Of a stretch of 49,063 bases of DNA, positions 1 to 22,105 are shown piece by piece. A program made the position numbers and the translations under genes. The notes under the pieces are model-generated. The model saw nothing but the letters and a program-made list of their open reading frames with translations, was not told the DNA's origin and searched no databases. Position 1 is the stretch's first letter; each line of letters opens with the position of its first letter. Origin of the DNA: a virus (lineage: Duplodnaviria; Heunggongvirae; Uroviricota; Caudoviricetes); the IMG/VR virus record IMGVR_UViG_2718217860_000001. One strand, written 5' to 3'.

Positions 1-1230
1 TTAGGCTACCAGAGCATTTGATCTTTGAGCTTGAACGTAATCACTCCACCATTGCATCAAACTCTGTCGCTCTATCAGATATTCTGCACGATTGTATGCT
101 GCGATAATTTCATCTTTTTTCGAGTGGGCAAGCGCTGCCTCAAGAACTTCAGCTCTGAATTTACCAGACTCCTCTGCCGCTGTTCGTGCAATAGAACGCA
201 TACCGTGAGCTACAAGCTCGCCTCCGAACCCCATTCGGATGATAGCTGCGTTGGCTGTTTGTTCATGCATATGATTAAGAGGCGCTTTTATGCTGGGGAA
301 AACCCATTCTCTATGCCCACTTATTGATTTCATTAATTCAAGGATGCGCAAAGCTTCTTTACTCAAAGGAACTTTGTGAAGCTTTTTCATTTTCATGAAA
401 TCAGCAGGAATGTTCCAAATGCTGTTGGTTGTATCAATATCAGACCACCTTGCGCGAACGGCTTCACCCGGACGAACCCATGTCAACAATTGCCATTCAA
501 TTAGCATACGTGTTTCCAACCGGATTGACGCATTCGTCAAAGATTCCATAAACCTTGGCAATTCGCTTGGGGGAAGGGCAGGCATATTTTGCTTTTTTGG
601 TTTACTGAATCTTTGACCAAGGTTGTCAGCCGGGTTGAACTCAATAAGTTCTTCAGTAGCTGCCCACCGGAAGATTTCATTCAGACGTGAAATGATACGG
701 CGTAGAGTTTCCAATACGCCTCGTTGCTCAATAGGATCAAGGTGTTGTTTTAAGAGCTTAGGTCGGATCTCATTGATAGGGACATTACCCAGACCGGGAA
801 AGACATTTCTCTCTAAGCTGCGCCAGATGTCTGCTGCATGGTCTTGTGAGATACCTGATGTCTTTACCTTCTCATCTAACCATTTCCGCGCTACGGCTTG
901 GAGAGTGTGCTCAGTAGCACTCTTTAATGCCTTCGCCTTATCGTTGTTATGGATTTGGGGATCAACACCATTTGCCAGAAAGGAGAGATATTCATCACGT
1001 AAGGCTCTGGCTCTTGCAAGGGTAAGGTGAGGATATGTCCCAAGGCTCATTTTGGTTCTTTTCTTGCTCACTGGTACTGCATACCTGAAATACCAATTTT
1101 TCTTGCCTCCTTTCGCCAAAGGAGCGATTCGTAGAATCAGACCATCACCGTCAAACAAGTTGATTTCTTTATCGGCTGGCTTGGTACTTTTGATTTCAGT
1201 GTCAGTGAGCTTCTTAGCGATTTTTGCCAT
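1..1230 (-). CDS. int: P4-type tyrosine integrase (IntA/CP4-57-like)
   Basis: ORF open from 1272, but ATG at 1230 has a GAGGG RBS and gives MAKIAKKLTDTEIK..., which aligns from the N-terminus with E. coli IntA as I recall it (DGDGL, WYFRY, DIWRSLERNVFP, MQWW motifs). Stop codon at 1..3. Sits ~165 bp from the ssrA 3'-end repeat, as intA does next to ssrA. Confidence 0.85.
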   Translation of the reverse strand: MAKIAKKLTDTEIKSTKPADKEINLFDGDGLILRIAPLAKGGKKNWYFRYAVPVSKKRTKMSLGTYPHLTLARARALRDEYLSFLANGVDPQIHNNDKAKALKSATEHTLQAVARKWLDEKVKTSGISQDHAADIWRSLERNVFPGLGNVPINEIRPKLLKQHLDPIEQRGVLETLRRIISRLNEIFRWAATEELIEFNPADNLGQRFSKPKKQNMPALPPSELPRFMESLTNASIRLETRMLIEWQLLTWVRPGEAVRARWSDIDTTNSIWNIPADFMKMKKLHKVPLSKEALRILELMKSISGHREWVFPSIKAPLNHMHEQTANAAIIRMGFGGELVAHGMRSIARTAAEESGKFRAEVLEAALAHSKKDEIIAAYNRAEYLIERQSLMQWWSDYVQAQRSNALVA

Positions 1231-1395
1231 TTTGGGACCCTCGGTTTTTGGACCCTTCTTAGTGGGTCCCATTCAGGGTGCCATAACTCGTAGTTCTCAG
1301 CAATTCTCACTGGACGACAATAGACGTAAAAAAGCCCGCAGAGCTTGTGCTGTGTGGGCTTAGTAGACTTCATTGAACTTCAAACAACTAAAAAG

Positions 1396-1428
1396 TGGTG
1401 GAGCTGGCGGGAGTTGAACCCGAGTCCG
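1396..1428. repeat. 33-bp direct repeat of the ssrA (tmRNA) 3' end; att-site remnant
   Basis: 1396..1428 (tggtggagctggcgggagttgaacccgAgtccg) matches 48662..48694 of the intact ssrA with one mismatch at 1423; flanking sequence diverges on both sides. Confidence 0.85.
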
Positions 1429-1500: not shown

Positions 1501-2400
1501 TTATGTCTGGATGTGGTCGTCAACACATCCTCTTTTAAATACAGGCGCTTTTACCTTAGTTGGATCATCTGTTTTAAAGATTTTCAATCGTTCACTGAAG
1601 AACATTACCTCAGATCCTTTGTACCGATCTTGAGCACTGTAGTTTATTCCATATACTAATGATGATGTCTTATACATAGCTTGGATCTCAGGAGTGTTAT
1701 CGTAAGAAACAATCCAAGGCGTTTTAATATTATTCTGTACGACTTTTGCAACCCTAACATGATCATCATGATCATAATGGTTGATATATAAACCTTTACC
1801 TTTTATGTAATAAGGTGGATCCAAATATGTTAATGAGTTTTGTGGCAATTGAATAACTATTTTTTTTATGAAATCAATTGCATCCATGTTATATAAATCT
1901 ATTCTGTGACGATTTTCTGATATTTTATGGATTCGAGAAATCAAATCACTCTTATTATAGCGAGCGTCAAGCTTCCATTTCCCTTCTTGATTTTTACCGC
2001 CAATTACACCACCTTTTAATATTCCAGAACGATTTGTTCTATTGAGAAAAAAGGTTGAGAAACCAATTGTTAAAAGATCATGGTCTTTAGGATTATTAAT
2101 TATATCTTTCTGCCTAAACCATTCATCCATTGTAACTTCTGTTCTTTCAATTAAAGAACATAATTGATCTGCATGATTTAATACACTGTGCCAAAAAGCA
2201 TAAACAGAAATATTAATATCATTAAGGATGATTTTTTCAGCTGCATTTAGATGTAACAGTTTCAATGCTAAACCAGCACCCCCAGCATATGGTTCGGCAT
2301 AATGTATAGGCGAAAGATTATTTTCTTCAATAATCCGAAGCATGAAATTTGCAAGCTTGCCTTTACCGCCAGGATAGCGAAGTGGGGTGTTAAAACGCAT
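1501..2400 (-). CDS. Dam-family (D12 class) N6-adenine DNA methyltransferase
   Basis: 299 aa. N-terminal AdoMet-binding region RYPGGKGKL...EPYAGGAGL resembles E. coli Dam (AGGK...EPFVGAGS); catalytic DPPY motif present (LDPPYYIKG). Low-GC gene with AGAGG RBS. Confidence 0.8.
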   Translation of the reverse strand: MRFNTPLRYPGGKGKLANFMLRIIEENNLSPIHYAEPYAGGAGLALKLLHLNAAEKIILNDINISVYAFWHSVLNHADQLCSLIERTEVTMDEWFRQKDIINNPKDHDLLTIGFSTFFLNRTNRSGILKGGVIGGKNQEGKWKLDARYNKSDLISRIHKISENRHRIDLYNMDAIDFIKKIVIQLPQNSLTYLDPPYYIKGKGLYINHYDHDDHVRVAKVVQNNIKTPWIVSYDNTPEIQAMYKTSSLVYGINYSAQDRYKGSEVMFFSERLKIFKTDDPTKVKAPVFKRGCVDDHIQT

Positions 2401-2479: not shown

Positions 2480-4059
2480 TTAGTTATCTGACAGATATGA
2501 TGAGATGGTAGCAGAATCGACACCATGTCCACTTATCATAATAACTTTAAGACTCTTTATTAGTTCATTCTTGAAGCTATCCGATTGCACAGGATTTTTC
2601 TCGACCCAATATCGATATGGGTTATCTTTAACTCGTCCTTTGACTTGGTCCTGAAATTGAGTCGTATGTGCAAAATCTTTAAACAGTTTTCTCACTCTCC
2701 CGCCATGATTTTTGTTAACTTTTTTATAATTATCTATAAGGATTTTTAAATCAATCGGAGCGTTACCAATCTTTAGCGTTGTAATTATGTCTTTAGCTGT
2801 TTTCATAAAAACAGATTTTGTAAATTTATTTTTATTTTCCCAATATGCATCATCAGGTGGTAAATTATATAAAAACTCAAAAATCATTTGGTCTGGAGGT
2901 AAGGTGCTTGGAAGCAAACATAAGTTTTTTTCTTTTTTGGCTTTTTTTGCATTAGCACTGTTGTCGTGAACAACATCACCGTCTAAGACGATCAAGCTTT
3001 TAGCTGTAAATTCTGGTATTTTTCTTGCCATTAAGTCAAGCATGGCAGAGCAGCTAATATTTATATTCCCTAATGGATTTAATATTTTATTTATTTTTCG
3101 ATCTGTTATCAATTGTTTGAAAAAGTCGAAACCTTCTTTGTCTTCAAAATATACATTTGCTTTTGGAAGACAAATGTCATCATTAATTTTTACAGTTTCA
3201 ACATGTAAATCAGCGTGGATATCTGTCCATGAAAGATTATTCTTTGTTTTAATATCTCCATATGTGTCTGTAAGATATATTGTTTTAAAGCTATCACTAT
3301 CTTGTTTTGAACGATTATAGATATCCTCTATTATTAATGGAGAGTGCGAGGTCATGATTATTTGCAGATCGTATTGTTTTGCTGCTTTAGTTAGAATATT
3401 AATTAGCTCTAACTGTGCAGCAGGGAAAAGACCTGCATCGGCTTCATCAATTAACAATATTCCGCCATGATAATCAGAATAAGTTTCCTTCAATCTTTTA
3501 AATGAAAAAATTGCTTGGATTAATTGTCCAACATTATCTTCACCAACAGATACTGATTGGTGATCATAATTGTCACCATGGACAACCATTGAATCGATAG
3601 TACCTTTTGTTGCTGTTACTGAGCTTCCATTGTTTTTTAGTAAGAGTTGGTTACTCATCATTCTGATTTCATCAGAATTTTCATTGATGTACTGAACATC
3701 CCGTGTTGAGTAATCAGTCCTTAATGTAATAGGAAGAAGTCGTGCTAAGCTTAAAAAAATAACAGGATGAGTAACGTTTCTACTTTGGTTTTTTTCCGGT
3801 ATTGAATCATTTCCCCTGACTACAGGCCTTGATTTATCTCTGTCACTGTAGCTGTATAAACCTAATGTTAGTTTTTCAAGATGTTTGTTCGATGCACCAT
3901 CATAGACACTAATTTTGACGTCCATTGAACCAGGAACATCAAATTGTTCTGAAAGCCTAAAATGTTCGCTGAAAGCTGACTTGAAGCTGCCATTTGTTAA
4001 TGTTTTATATTGTGTTAAATCAGTCTCAGGGTTTTTGGTAAAGTCCTTTGTAAAGCTAA
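2480..4059 (-). pseudogene. C-terminal part of an IS5-interrupted ABC ATPase with Toprim-like C-terminal domain (OLD-like)
   Basis: Reading frame is open upstream of the called Met (3925) all the way to the IS5 boundary at 4059, with no start codon. Contains Walker B ILLIDEADAGLF and H-loop MTSHSP typical of AAA_15/AAA_21 ABC ATPases. C-terminal region has a candidate Toprim signature: KEGFD and, ~50 aa later, LIVLDGDVV. Confidence 0.75.
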
Positions 4060-5254
<1,195 letters not shown>

Positions 5255-5412
5255 CTAAATATTTGGGCGATAATGCCAAGAATTGTGGATTTAGATGTGC
5301 CATTTTTACCACAAATAACAGTTAGGCGAGAACCAAACTCGATGTTTATATTTTTCAGTCCGCGAAACTTCACAACATTTATATTTTTTAGTTTGGTAAT
5401 TTGATTTGCCAT
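5255..5412 (-). pseudogene. N-terminal part (Walker A) of the same IS5-interrupted ABC ATPase gene
   Basis: MANQITKLKNINVVKFRGLKNINIEFGSRLTVICGKNGTSKSTILGIIAQIF carries the P-loop GKNGTSKST. After removing IS5 plus one CTAA copy (1199 bp) the frame continues without a stop into 4055 and on to 2480, giving a ~576-aa protein. Confidence 0.7.
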
Positions 5413-5470: not shown

Positions 5471-6637
5471 TTATATTGTTATCTTCTTCAAGCTTGTTTG
5501 TCCATCATATTCCTTCAGATATGAGCCATAGTGCCTGAAAAGCATCTCCGGTCCTTTATGCCCCATTTGAGCTGCAAGCCAAAACAGGTTTGCTCCTCGG
5601 CTGATATGGCTGGTGGCGAATGTATGCCTGGTTTGATATGGATTTCTGTATCGAATACCTGCTTTCCGCAATGTTGGAACCCATGCTTTTTTCCTGATTG
5701 CATCAGCACTTGCCCAAGGCTTATTGGTCTTTGGGTCTTCAAAGACAGTAGCATCCTTCATGAATGTAAATGGCTTCTGATTTATCAGCGCCAACATTGC
5801 TTCTTCTGTCAGTTCAACTTTACGAGTACCTGCTTTTGTCTTTGTCCCTTTGATAACACCGACAACACTTGCGCTCTGGACATGGGCAGTTTTTCCAACA
5901 AAGTCGATATCACGCCATCGAAGGGCACATAATTCAGAACTACGCAGGCCTGTATGTATAGCGAACCGGAACAGATTCTCCCATTGTTTGTTTCCGGCTG
6001 CTGCTAGTAATGCATCAACTTCTGCTGGTGATAGCGGATCAACCACGTAGCTGCTTTCTGCTTCTGACTTATCACTTTGGTAGCGCGAAGCAGTTACCAA
6101 CGATACGGGGTTAATTTGAAGTACCCCATCGGTTACGGCTTCATCAAGTGCTGACCGCAGGAAAGATAACTGGTTGCGAATTGTTTTTAAGGTCGTTTTC
6201 TGGCTTTGAATCCACGCTTTCAGGATTGCTGGTGTTAATTCACTTGCAGGGCAAATGTGGAGTGAGGCTAACGCACTACGGCATTTTTTATAACCACCAA
6301 TCGTTGAGGGTGAGAGTTTTCTCGTTTCGCAGATTTCAAGGTATTCGTCCAAGTACATTTTTACCGTTTTGCCTGCAGCAGCATTACCAAAAATTTTCAA
6401 ACGAGCAGAACGGGGAAAATATTCCGCATAAATGAATGTTCCCCTTTCGATCTTATTATGAATTTCGCCGAGTGTGCGCTCGGCGTATTTAATGTTCTTT
6501 GGTGTTACTTCCAGATTGGAAAGAGGCTCACGACATTTAACTCCTTTATAGGTGAAAGTTATATTGATCGTTTCGCCCTGGCGGTGTTTCCTGATTGTTA
6601 CGCCGCGCGGTAGTTTGAGCAGTTTTGTCTGGCCCAT
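5471..6637 (-). CDS. int: prophage tyrosine integrase (lambdoid, Arm-type N-terminus)
   Basis: 388 aa. C-terminal catalytic region with R...HxxR...Y context (QTRHTFATSHISRGANLFWLAAQMGHKGPEMLFRHYGSY); sits at the prophage end and is overlapped by a small upstream ORF, as lambda xis overlaps int. Confidence 0.85.
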   Translation of the reverse strand: MGQTKLLKLPRGVTIRKHRQGETINITFTYKGVKCREPLSNLEVTPKNIKYAERTLGEIHNKIERGTFIYAEYFPRSARLKIFGNAAAGKTVKMYLDEYLEICETRKLSPSTIGGYKKCRSALASLHICPASELTPAILKAWIQSQKTTLKTIRNQLSFLRSALDEAVTDGVLQINPVSLVTASRYQSDKSEAESSYVVDPLSPAEVDALLAAAGNKQWENLFRFAIHTGLRSSELCALRWRDIDFVGKTAHVQSASVVGVIKGTKTKAGTRKVELTEEAMLALINQKPFTFMKDATVFEDPKTNKPWASADAIRKKAWVPTLRKAGIRYRNPYQTRHTFATSHISRGANLFWLAAQMGHKGPEMLFRHYGSYLKEYDGQTSLKKITI

Positions 6638-19180: not shown

Positions 19181-20233
19181 ATGAAAAATACTGTAAAAAT
19201 AAACAGTGTTGATTTGATCAACGCTGATTGCCTGCATTTTATTCAGTCCCTGCCTGATGATTCCATTGACCTGATTGTTACCGATCCGCCTTACTTCAAG
19301 GTGAAACCCAACGGTTGGGACAATCAGTGGAAAGGGGACGAAGATTACCTTAAGTGGCTGGACCACTGTCTGGCCCAGTTCTGGCGGGTGTTGAAACCTG
19401 CCGGAAGCCTTTACCTGTTCTGTGGGCATCGCCTGGCATCTGATATTGAGATCATGATGCGTGAACGTTTCAACGTGCTTAACCATATCATCTGGGCGAA
19501 GCCGTCCGGACGTTGGAATGGGTGTAATAAAGAAAGTCTGCGCGCATATTTTCCTGCCACAGAGCGCGTTCTGTTTGCTGAACATTACCAGGGGCCATAT
19601 CGCGGCAAAAGTGACGGCTATGCGGCAAAAGAAAGGGAACTCAAACAGCACATAATGGCACCGCTGATATCGTATTTCAGGGATGCTCGTGCCGAACTGG
19701 GTATAACGGCAAAACAAATTGCCGAAGCCACAGGTAAGAAAAATATGGTTTCCCACTGGTTTGGTGCCAGTCAGTGGCAGTTGCCGAATGAGGCTGACTA
19801 TCGGAAGTTACAGGCACTGTTTTCCCGTATAGCGGCAGAGAAGTTTCAGGAACAACAACTGGAACAACCACACCACCAGCTGGTGGCATCTTATGATTCA
19901 CTGAATCGCAAATATTCTGAATTGCTGGATGAGTTTAAATCTCTCCGGCGCTATTTCTCCGTATCAGTCTCCGTGCCTTATACCGATGTCTGGATGCATA
20001 ACCCCGTTCAGTTCTACCCGGGTAAACATCCGTGTGAGAAACCGGCGGATATGCTCAGGCAAATAATCAATGCCAGTAGTCGACCTGGTGATCTGGTTGC
20101 TGATTTTTTTATGGGATCCGGTTCCACAATAAAAGCAGCAATGGCGCTGGGGCGTCGGGCCTTAGGTGTTGAGCTTGAGTCAGAGCGGTTTAACCAGACA
20201 GTGAAAGAGATAAACGAGCTGGTGGGGAAATAA
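19181..20233 (+). CDS. DNA methyltransferase, beta-class (N6-adenine or N4-cytosine)
   Basis: 350 aa. Catalytic motif IV DPPY near the N-terminus (LIVTDPPYF) and AdoMet motif I near the C-terminus (DFFMGSGST); this motif order defines beta-class amino-methyltransferases. Confidence 0.8.
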
Positions 20234-20300
20234 TCTGGTGGCCACGTCAGGTGGCCTTTTTATTTCCATTACACAGCACCCGCATCTGCGAGGTGGGGTT

Positions 20301-20516
20301 ATGAAATCCATGGATAAGTTAACAACGGGTGTCGCCTATGGCACCTCAGCAGGTAGTGCCGGGTACTGGTTTTTACAGTTGCTCGATAAAGTCACGCCCT
20401 CACAGTGGGCGGCAATAGGTGTGCTGGGTAGTCTGGTATTTGGCCTGCTGACGTACCTGACAAACCTTTATTTCAAGATTAAAGAAGATAAGCGCAAGGC
20501 TGCGAGAGGTGAATAA
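20301..20516 (+). CDS. class II holin, S21-like pinholin
   Basis: 71 aa; [28 protein letters not shown]...[22 protein letters not shown] closely matches phage 21 S21 as I recall it, including the dual-start MKSM motif. GAGGTGG RBS. Confidence 0.85.
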
Positions 20517-21013
20517 TGCCTCCATCATTACGAAAAGCAGTTGCTGCTGCTATTGGTGGCGGAGCAATTGCTATAGCATCAGTGTTAATCACTGGCCCAA
20601 GTGGTGACGATGGCCTGGAAGGTGTCAGCTACATACCATACAAAGATATCGTTGGCGTATGGACTGTATGTCACGGACACACCGGAAAAGACATCATGCT
20701 CGGTAAAACGTATACCGAAGCAGAATGCAAAGCCCTCCTGAATAAAGACCTTGCCACGGTTGCCAGACAAATTAACCCGTACATCAAAGTCGATATACCG
20801 GAAACAACGCGCGGCGCTCTTTACTCGTTCGTCTACAACGTGGGTGCTGGCAATTTCAGAACATCGACGCTTCTTCGCAAAATCAACCAGGGCGATATCA
20901 AAGGCGCATGTGACCAGCTACGTCGCTGGATATACGCTGGCGGTAAGCAATGGAAAGGCCTGATGACTCGTCGTGAGATTGAGCGTGAAGTCTGTTTGTG
21001 GGGGCAACAATGA
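20516..21013 (+). CDS. SAR endolysin (lysozyme with N-terminal signal-arrest-release domain)
   Basis: Gly/Ala-rich weakly hydrophobic N-terminus ([20 protein letters not shown]) followed by a lysozyme-like domain; start overlaps the holin stop. Confidence 0.85.
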
Positions 21014-21477
21014 GCAGAGTAACCGCGATTATCTCCGCTCTGGTTATCTGCATCATCGTCTGCCTGTCGTGGGCGGTCAATCATTACCGTGATAACGCCA
21101 TCGCCTACAAAGAACAGCGAGATAAAAAAGTCAGTGAGCTGAAGCAGGCGACCGCCACCATTACTGACATGCAGCAGCGCCAGCGTTCTGCTGATGCACT
21201 CGATGCTAAATACACGAAGGAGTTAGCTGATGCGAAAGCTGAAAATGATGCTCTTCGGCGCAAGCTTGATAATGGTGGTCGGGTGTTCGTCAAAGGAAAA
21301 TGCCCTGTGCCATCCTCAGCCGAAACCTCCAGCGCCTCCGGCATGGGCAATGATGCCACCGTCGAACTCTCTCCAGTTGCTGGACGAAACGTTCTCGGTA
21401 TCCGGGACGGAATTATCCGCGACCAAACAGCACTGAGAACGCTTCAGGAATACATCAGGACGCAATGCCTTCGATGA
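21010..21477 (+). CDS. Rz-like i-spanin
   Basis: N-terminal transmembrane helix then coiled-coil-type sequence; start overlaps the endolysin stop (ATGA). Confidence 0.75.
21230..21436 (+). CDS. Rz1-like o-spanin lipoprotein (embedded in +1 frame of Rz)
   Basis: Lipobox VVGCSS followed by a proline-rich segment ([11 protein letters not shown]); entirely inside the Rz gene. Confidence 0.7.
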
Positions 21478-22105
21478 TAGCGATAATTTTACTCATCATC
21501 CTTCACATCTGGCTCTGTAGACAGGATGGTGATCACTTCTGGAGTGAATCCAGATTAAACATCTCATTGCTGATGCTTGATATTGAGCATCTTGCGCGCG
21601 GTAAGGGGCTGCGTTGAGATAAGAGCCAGTCATTACAAATACCAGGATTTAGCCTCGCATTCGCGGGGCTTTTTATTGCCATTACAAAAGCCACTCCCTA
21701 CAGAGTGGCTTTGATAATGGCTTATACCCTACACGGGATAGCTTAACTGATATCCCTTTTAACGGATAAAGGTATTCAAGCCTGACACATCATGCGCTGT
21801 ATCGTCGCCGTATTCCCGTATTAACAGAGACCGTAGCCCGACGGGGAACTCCTTCTGCGCGAGTGTGCGGGAATAATCAAAAACGATGCACACCGGGTTT
21901 TTACCGCGTTTATGGTTCGCGGGTTTGTCCCTCATGCTCGCCAGTCCTGTGCGGGGGTGGAAGAAACAGGACACTTACACAGATTCTTGTGGGCACGATG
22001 CTATGCCTTTCTGGATTATCCCGATGCCATTCATGCAAGGCGTTGTATCAGACGTTCGTCAGAGCTGTCAGGCTGACGGGTCCTCCCGGTGGGGTGGCCT
22101 GCCAC

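Follow-up and report, generated by a model that had tools for sequence, protein, structure and literature searches.

M.EcoGII, encoded by Escherichia coli O104:H4 C227-11, has been characterised as a non-specific adenine methyltransferase of DNA and RNA (PMC5778455), and the same report extends its substrates to RNA and DNA:RNA hybrids. Together with M.EcoGI, it is the described system with which we compared the gene at positions 19181..20233 (+) of a 49,063-nucleotide stretch of viral DNA (Caudoviricetes; IMG/VR record IMGVR_UViG_2718217860_000001), the whole of which is referred to here as the window. The protein in the window and the described enzymes are of almost the same length (350 and 349 amino acids), are approximately 80% identical, share the beta-class motifs DPPY and FxGxG, are prophage-borne and have no partner nuclease. 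We consider it likely, with a probability of about 0.72, that 19181..20233 specifies an orphan enzyme of the M.EcoGII family, an active N6-adenine methyltransferase that belongs to a lambdoid prophage integrated at ssrA, is expressed late in dependence on Q, produces N6-methyladenine (m6A) in any sequence context and shields progeny genomes from restriction.

In the model proposed for the M.EcoGII family, helical linkers connect a split Rossmann catalytic domain with a helix-turn-helix, four-helix target-recognition domain (PMC11551740). The same study found DNA and RNA methylation activity in every ancestor tested, recovered no discernible sequence motif on RNA for M.EcoGII, Anc291 or SUPREM, measured a DNA activity for M.EcoGII approximately 90-fold above its RNA activity (Table S3), and reported lower RNA methylation activity upon the E179Q substitution in SUPREM (PMC11551740). 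The nearest characterised site-specific relative, M.PflMI, is 27% identical to M.EcoGII and is without the charged linker (PMC11551740). With regard to expression, the lysogen does not express M.EcoGI or M.EcoGII, constitutive M.EcoGII is deleterious, and the enzymes are presumed to be switched on at induction (PMC5778455, PMC12707154, PMC7736820); homologues likewise gave no methylation signal in lysogen methylomes (PMC6602927).

A 'DNA methylase' between q and either the lysis cassette or stx is found, in the same gene order as in the window, in phages cdtI, Ayreon and mEp460 and in Shiga toxin (Stx) phages of the Stx2c and Stx2a types, and for 45-kb Stx2a phages a transcriptional regulator and a DNA methylase have already been described between q and the tRNAs (PMC8456039). 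Behind the methyltransferase gene the Stx phages have tRNAs and stx2, whereas in the window an S21-type lysis cassette comes directly after it. A more distant parallel is provided by the ORF17 methyltransferase of Vibrio phage VHML, which is 48% identical over 97% of its length and precedes the terminase and late genes, although VHML is a myovirus with a different genome architecture. The Mom protein of phage Mu, the product of which is N6-carbamoylmethyl-adenine, is an unrelated protein with an unrelated chemistry, and its control is exerted by Com, C and Dam and not through Q antitermination. It nonetheless offers a conceptual likeness, in that it provides a late and broad modification of adenine, with silence in the lysogen and toxicity upon mis-expression (PMC12707154).

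The methyltransferase encoded at 19181..20233

A first-pass annotation of the window had placed a beta-class methyltransferase at 19181..20233, and this was borne out in each respect: the coordinates correspond exactly to an open reading frame (ORF) of 350 codons with an ATG start, the product matches the PF01555 (N6_N4_Mtase) profile, and motif IV precedes motif I. The profile match extends over residues 29-341 and is far above chance (E 2.2e-42; 146 bits against a cut-off of 26.7). Motif IV, DPPY, lies at residue 35 in the N-terminal part of the protein and motif I, FMGSG, at residue 310 in the C-terminal part, with the target-recognition region between them, an arrangement that defines the beta class. 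In an alignment of 28 family members neither motif varies, and the extended DPPYF, an FFxGSGST block and much of the central region are likewise constant. Both the identity of the protein and the intactness of its motifs are established.

What the first-pass annotation had missed is that this protein is, judged by its sequence, a close relative of M.EcoGII and not just any beta-class methyltransferase. The two align collinearly over their full length, with 281 of 349 residues identical (~80%) and two gaps of one residue each; the M.EcoGII sequence used was taken from the machine-read Table S1 of PMC11551740, in which a few residues are possibly wrong. Identity is higher to the reconstructed ancestors Anc291 (88%) and Anc289 (86%), and is 70% to SUPREM. 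The differences from M.EcoGII itself amount to approximately 69 substitutions, of which 18 fall in the target-recognition region, and the window protein belongs to a sub-clade nearer to Anc291. Across that region (residues 160-237) it shares 60 of 78 residues with M.EcoGII and 67 of 78 (86%) with Anc291, and both the linker and the target-recognition region align to M.EcoGII without a gap. The residue at position 179 is Q. By identity, the enzyme falls among those characterised as non-specific, and its likeness to M.EcoGII, Anc291 and SUPREM suggests that this allele is itself active and non-specific, with any adenine as its most likely target.

A sequence search against solved structures retrieved distant beta-class relatives (RsrI, MboIIA, CcrM and 9c3u/8urk), the matches to which cover the catalytic halves only, without the target-recognition region, and are hence no guide to specificity. 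An AlphaFold2 model, built from a shallow alignment of 28 sequences and of low confidence (predicted local distance difference test score, pLDDT, averaging 61.7), places helices at residues 146-173, 177-184, 190-194, 204-223 and 232-254, flanked by alpha/beta segments. The secondary structure of this model agrees with the architecture given in PMC11551740, namely a split Rossmann fold, a helical target-recognition domain and helical linkers, and the predicted helical central region would be a further feature held in common with M.EcoGII.

No cognate restriction endonuclease gene was found beside 19181..20233, the immediate neighbours being an ORF for a 67-residue winged-helix protein and the holin gene, and the enzyme is therefore classed as an orphan methyltransferase. 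The same is true of the second methyltransferase of the window (described below), in that no nuclease gene flanks either of the two, as had been claimed in the first-pass annotation.

The gene is widely distributed. At the nucleotide level, positions 17800..21600 are 99% identical to phage Ayreon and approximately 98% identical to mEp460 and phage cdtI, and the first 2.4 kb of this segment are 92.7% identical to Stx2c-converting phages. The methyltransferase gene itself is 97-100% identical in cdtI, Ayreon and mEp460 (99.7% for the cdtI protein), with protein identities of 85% for the copies in Stx2c phages and 80% for those in Stx2a phages. It was found in 1255 of 5426 complete E. coli genomes, and homologues with 76-99% identity occur throughout the Enterobacterales. 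Comparison with the 80%-identical copy of Stx2a phage EH2246 gave a ratio of nonsynonymous to synonymous substitution rates (dN/dS) of 0.086, so that strong purifying selection acts on the gene, which is no decaying relic. In a few database proteins, the first 80-85% of the methyltransferase (at 99-100% identity) is fused to unrelated domains, namely PF03245 (Rz lysis), PF26078/PF26079 or PF06316/PF13505, and these fusions are probably gene-calling or assembly artefacts at prophage junctions.

Late-operon setting and the recurring module

The methyltransferase gene lies on the same strand as the gene for the late antiterminator Q and the lysis genes, downstream of a candidate late promoter and terminator and upstream of the holin gene, which upholds the earlier placement between the late promoter and the lysis cassette. 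Q is encoded at 17145..17897 (+), with the start taken from the annotation of phage Ayreon, and was identified by matches to PF03589 (E 7e-54) and to DnaJ_CXXCXGXG, a zinc-finger-like CXXCXGXG domain. The candidate pR' at 17929..17957 (+) begins 32 bases past the Q stop codon and consists of TTGCAT, a 17-nucleotide spacer and TAAGAT, as read from the sequence and its conservation. The block containing it is the longest invariant stretch in an alignment of six diverged phages that share this Q family, in which the -10 element differs at its two central positions only. An automated promoter scan of 17700..20700 returned five promoter-like sites against 5.0 expected from shuffles, and the pR' candidate was absent from its list.

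Approximately 50-70 nucleotides past pR' there is a tR'-type intrinsic terminator at 18005..18030 (+), a GC hairpin with a T-run (-14.4 kcal/mol, z -2.8), which we take as the candidate tR'. This hairpin is annotated as a terminator in Ayreon and SfV, and the other phages keep a hairpin with different stem sequences. A second intrinsic terminator, near-identical to the first and annotated as such in Ayreon, is present at 18681..18706 (+), and the pair brackets a lipoprotein moron of 141 residues at 18178..18603 (+; lipobox LVGC; phrog_4748, E 7e-91). The 67-residue winged-helix ORF follows at 18827..19030 (+; phrog_331, E 3e-26), directly upstream of the methyltransferase; its homologues are named TrmB-family or DprA-like winged helix.

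Past the methyltransferase stop codon, a terminator-like hairpin with a T-run occupies 20240..20265 (+; -19.5 kcal/mol, z -4.45, with 0 of 200 shuffles as stable). In Ayreon it carries a terminator annotation; the Salmonella form of the module does not preserve it. The lysis cassette then comprises an S21-type (P21-type) (pin)holin with the dual-start motif MKSM at 20301..20516 (+; starts at 20301 and 20310; PF04971, E 4e-35), an endolysin of the phage lysozyme type with a hydrophobic N-terminal segment at 20516..21013 (+; PF00959, E 2e-45), and an Rz spanin at 20998..21477 (+; PF03245, E 9e-29), in which an Rz1-like lipoprotein ORF is embedded at 21230..21436.

A terminator, the lipoprotein gene, the small winged-helix ORF and the methyltransferase gene form a block that is found again behind three types of Q and ahead of different lysis cassettes or stx2. 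In Ayreon the methyltransferase occupies the same slot, with the winged-helix ORF again directly upstream. In the Stx2a phage EH2246, a different and shorter Q is followed by a small ORF 54% identical to the winged-helix ORF, the methyltransferase, tRNAs and stx2AB; the methyltransferase there is 92% identical to M.EcoGII, so that an orthologue of M.EcoGII stands in the same Q-proximal slot. In Salmonella prophages, where Q is of a third type (PF06530/DUF1133), the same hairpin comes next, and behind it counterparts of the lipoprotein (74% identical), the winged-helix ORF (49%) and the methyltransferase (82%), after which there is an unrelated cassette of holin and GH19 endolysin. Both the position of the gene and the conservation of its synteny are matters of observation. 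In 19181..20233 a well-known and experimentally characterised family is represented by one more copy, at the usual site, since many lambda-like prophages of E. coli have such a gene just ahead of those for lysis.

Proposed late expression and alternative functions

In lambdoid phages pR' is constitutive, its transcripts stop at tR' in the lysogen, and after induction the Q-modified polymerase passes terminators (PMC6266700, PMC7547250). Applied to the window, the Q-dependent unit would start with pR' and tR' and continue through the lipoprotein moron, the second terminator, the winged-helix ORF, the methyltransferase and the hairpin to the holin/endolysin/spanin genes. Because the methyltransferase is placed behind both tR' and the second terminator, it should be off in the lysogen, where transcripts from pR' would end at tR', and on at the same time as the genes for lysis and morphogenesis after induction, when the Q-modified RNA polymerase would pass the terminators and the enzyme would be made alongside the products of those genes. 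Were its methylation like that of M.EcoGII, adenines in essentially any context would be modified and replicating phage DNA would become heavily marked with m6A before packaging. Progeny genomes might then be shielded in the next host against adenine-sensitive restriction of Types I, II and III, and confinement to the late phase would avoid the toxicity of adenine methylation throughout the genome and on RNA. The published silence of these genes in lysogens and the toxicity of M.EcoGII fit Q-dependent late expression and hypermethylation of progeny DNA. The non-specific activity, the Q-dependent expression and the anti-restriction benefit are those elements of the scheme that we infer, and late expression with protection of progeny DNA is an idea already in the literature for the M.EcoGII family (PMC5778455, PMC12707154, PMC7736820).

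Several points weigh against this scheme. The literature searched contains presumptions only, with no direct demonstration of late induction or of anti-restriction by M.EcoGII-type enzymes, and PMC11551740 calls the biological role of M.EcoGII unknown. Approximately 20% of residues differ from M.EcoGII, including the 18 of 78 in the target-recognition region, and the AlphaFold model is weak at a pLDDT of 61.7. The hexamers of pR' are a weak match to consensus (~7/12), and it was by conservation, rather than by mapping, that the promoter was assigned. Between the methyltransferase stop and the holin start there is a strong hairpin of the terminator type, that at 20240..20265. Finally, an unrecognised promoter upstream of the winged-helix ORF could make that ORF and the methyltransferase an autonomous moron.

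Amongst the alternatives, the one that survives best, which we nevertheless regard as unlikely, is that the enzyme is active and non-specific, but was selected for action on RNA or host DNA, as in host takeover or shut-off, or for regulation of the phage life cycle, possibly with the winged-helix protein. Life-cycle variants of this explanation could concern packaging, a replication switch or late-gene expression. The activity of M.EcoGII on RNA and DNA:RNA hybrids, noted above from PMC5778455, would suit such a role, as would the statement in PMC11551740 that its biological function is unknown, the discussion of orphan phage methyltransferases as life-cycle regulators (PMC12707154), and the conservation of the winged-helix ORF beside the gene. 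Set against these are the approximately 90-fold preference of M.EcoGII for DNA over RNA (PMC11551740 Table S3), and the occurrence in the window protein of Q179, the very residue introduced into SUPREM by the E179Q substitution that lowered RNA methylation. There is, moreover, no known regulatory target, and expression late, right before packaging, most simply fits protection of DNA.

It is rather improbable that the enzyme is instead a sequence-specific orphan methyltransferase, in which divergence has restored or retained a defined site, giving protection from particular restriction-modification systems or a site-specific regulatory function. Such an enzyme could be accommodated by the 18 target-recognition residues that are unlike M.EcoGII and by the observation that M.PflMI has the same overall predicted fold (PMC11551740), and homologues are named 'site-specific DNA-methyltransferase' in databases, though such names are automatic. 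The window protein is, however, nearer to Anc291 (88%) than to M.EcoGII, and its linker and target-recognition region align gap-free with the latter, whereas M.PflMI is just 27% identical to M.EcoGII and is without the charged linker. Identity places it with the DNA- and RNA-active enzymes of the SUPREM study, of which M.EcoGII, Anc291 and SUPREM gave no motif on RNA, and REBASE-based tables give 'nonspecific' for homologues approximately 93% similar to M.EcoGI/GII (PMC6602927).

The gene might also be inert baggage in a prophage under decay, having stayed intact by chance without ever being usefully expressed in this strain. Such an explanation would be consistent with at least one IS5 insertion in the prophage and with the lack of a methylation signal from M.EcoGI and M.EcoGII in lysogens (PMC5778455, PMC6602927), but is very unlikely in view of the full-length ORF with all catalytic motifs intact and a dN/dS of 0.086, the intact ORFs of the genes around it (Q, lysis, terminase, head and tail), the 99% identity of this prophage region to the genome record of phage Ayreon, and the fact that IS5 struck the accessory ATPase gene only.

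The ssrA prophage and its other methyltransferases

An exact direct repeat of 27 bp, copying the 3' end of ssrA, occurs at 1396..1422 (left attachment site, att) and at 48662..48688, the latter being the 3' end of the ssrA transfer-messenger RNA gene itself (48662..49024, -; ARAGORN). These repeats bound a prophage of approximately 47.3 kb, and its lambdoid integrase is encoded at 5471..6637 (-; matches to Arm-DNA-bind_2 and Phage_integrase). A P4-type integrase at 1..1272 (-) marks the start of a neighbouring second island, which lies in tandem with the lambdoid prophage. Towards the other end, the interval between the tail-fibre assembly gene and attR, the usual place of morons or defence genes, holds cargo ORFs at 45532..46791 (-; 419 residues, phrog_19262) and 47651..48484 (-; 277 residues, phrog_8766), neither of which had matches in Pfam, NCBIfam or PADLOC.

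The first-pass annotation had counted three methyltransferases in the window, and this count stands: matches to PF02086, to PF05869/TIGR01712 and to PF01555 were obtained at the positions described, a scan of all ORFs of at least 90 residues in the window for [DNS]PP[YFWH] picked out these three methyltransferase ORFs only, and all three lie inside the 27-bp repeats. Motif IV is kept in each, so the loss of catalytic motifs that was contemplated earlier was not encountered. Because the D12/PD-lambda-5_B, phage Dam (PF05869) and M.EcoGII families are unrelated, a single shared specificity, such as that of the host Dam, appears unlikely.

Methyltransferase 1, a D12-class enzyme of the PD-lambda-5_B type, is encoded at 1501..2400 (-) between attL and int, retains DPPY, and matches PF02086 (E 1.8e-19) and, over residues 1-282, the PADLOC model PD-Lambda-5_B (E 5.8e-124). 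The possibility that it forms part of the island with the P4-type integrase was ruled out, as the att repeat at 1396..1422 brings 1501..2400 within the bounds of the ssrA prophage, and the genome of Citrobacter phage phiNP has this pair of ATPase and methyltransferase genes at its end. The ATPase gene beside it had been described as a disrupted ATPase/Toprim gene. The disruption was confirmed: IS5 at 4060..5254 (-), recognised from a match to IS5, its CTAA target duplication, terminal repeats and matches to the DDE_Tnp_1 and DUF772 transposase domains, separates the 525 C-terminal codons (2480..4059, -; AAA_15 and AAA_21 matches) from the 52 N-terminal codons (5255..5412, -), the translation of which includes the Walker A motif GKNGTSKST. 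The Toprim part of the description was not confirmed, in that Pfam yielded AAA_15/21/23 and no Toprim domain for the intact 577-residue homologue from E. coli M10 (phrog_3940).

PD-lambda-5 is described as a compact 'RM+Abi' system of prophages, and the host in which it was cloned had the mrr region deleted (PMC9519451). The ATPase and methyltransferase 1 look like a PD-lambda-5-related defence pair rather than a classical restriction-modification system. The PADLOC model PD-Lambda-5_A was absent from the best 25 matches of the intact ATPase homologue and at E <= 1e-19, and the C-terminal half of the ATPase had no PADLOC match. The split of the ATPase gene by IS5 leaves methyltransferase 1 an orphan; undisrupted, the two genes are present together in E. 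coli M10 as well as in phiNP.

Methyltransferase 2 belongs to the phage Dam family and is encoded in the Nin region at 13943..14596 (+), with matches to PF05869 (E 1.1e-45; 155.7 bits against a cut-off of 28.1) and TIGR01712 (255 bits against a cut-off of 97). Its NPPY motif is at residue 97, counted in the ORF that starts at GTG 13910. It shares 99.5% identity with the enzyme encoded in the Nin region of Stx2c phages, and the 42 matches in phage records above 80% identity, including those of the Stx2c phages, are all at 95% or more, with none at 80-95%. GATC specificity was not assignable by closeness, there being no characterised enzyme among the matches listed. The gene is flanked by a PerC-like ORF at 13467..13943 (+) and by an ORF with a LexA DNA-binding domain at 14593..14919 (+). 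Since the otherwise collinear Ayreon has no Dam gene at this place, the Nin-region Dam is a separately acquired insert.

A more tentative suggestion, which we hold with low confidence, is that the 67-residue winged-helix protein is a dedicated partner of the M.EcoGII-type enzyme, setting its timing or level or targeting it to phage DNA, such that the two would form a self-contained late module. A related and equally tentative reading is that the prophage deploys three adenine methyltransferases at three stages of its life cycle, with the PD-lambda-5-type enzyme possibly active in the lysogen, the Dam of the Nin region in the early phase and the enzyme of M.EcoGII type late.

The literature already covers the gene and the family it belongs to, as well as the gene's silence in lysogens and its location between q and either the lysis or the stx genes. 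The practical value of the present assignment is one of annotation, in that databases name such proteins 'site-specific DNA-methyltransferase' whilst the characterised relative is non-specific. The points worth following are the conserved winged-helix ORF, and the presumed hypermethylation of progeny DNA and its protection by M.EcoGII-type enzymes. If the anti-restriction role is true, it would explain the presence of this gene in about a quarter of complete E. coli genomes, and would show how lambdoid phages, including the Stx phages, cross restriction barriers.

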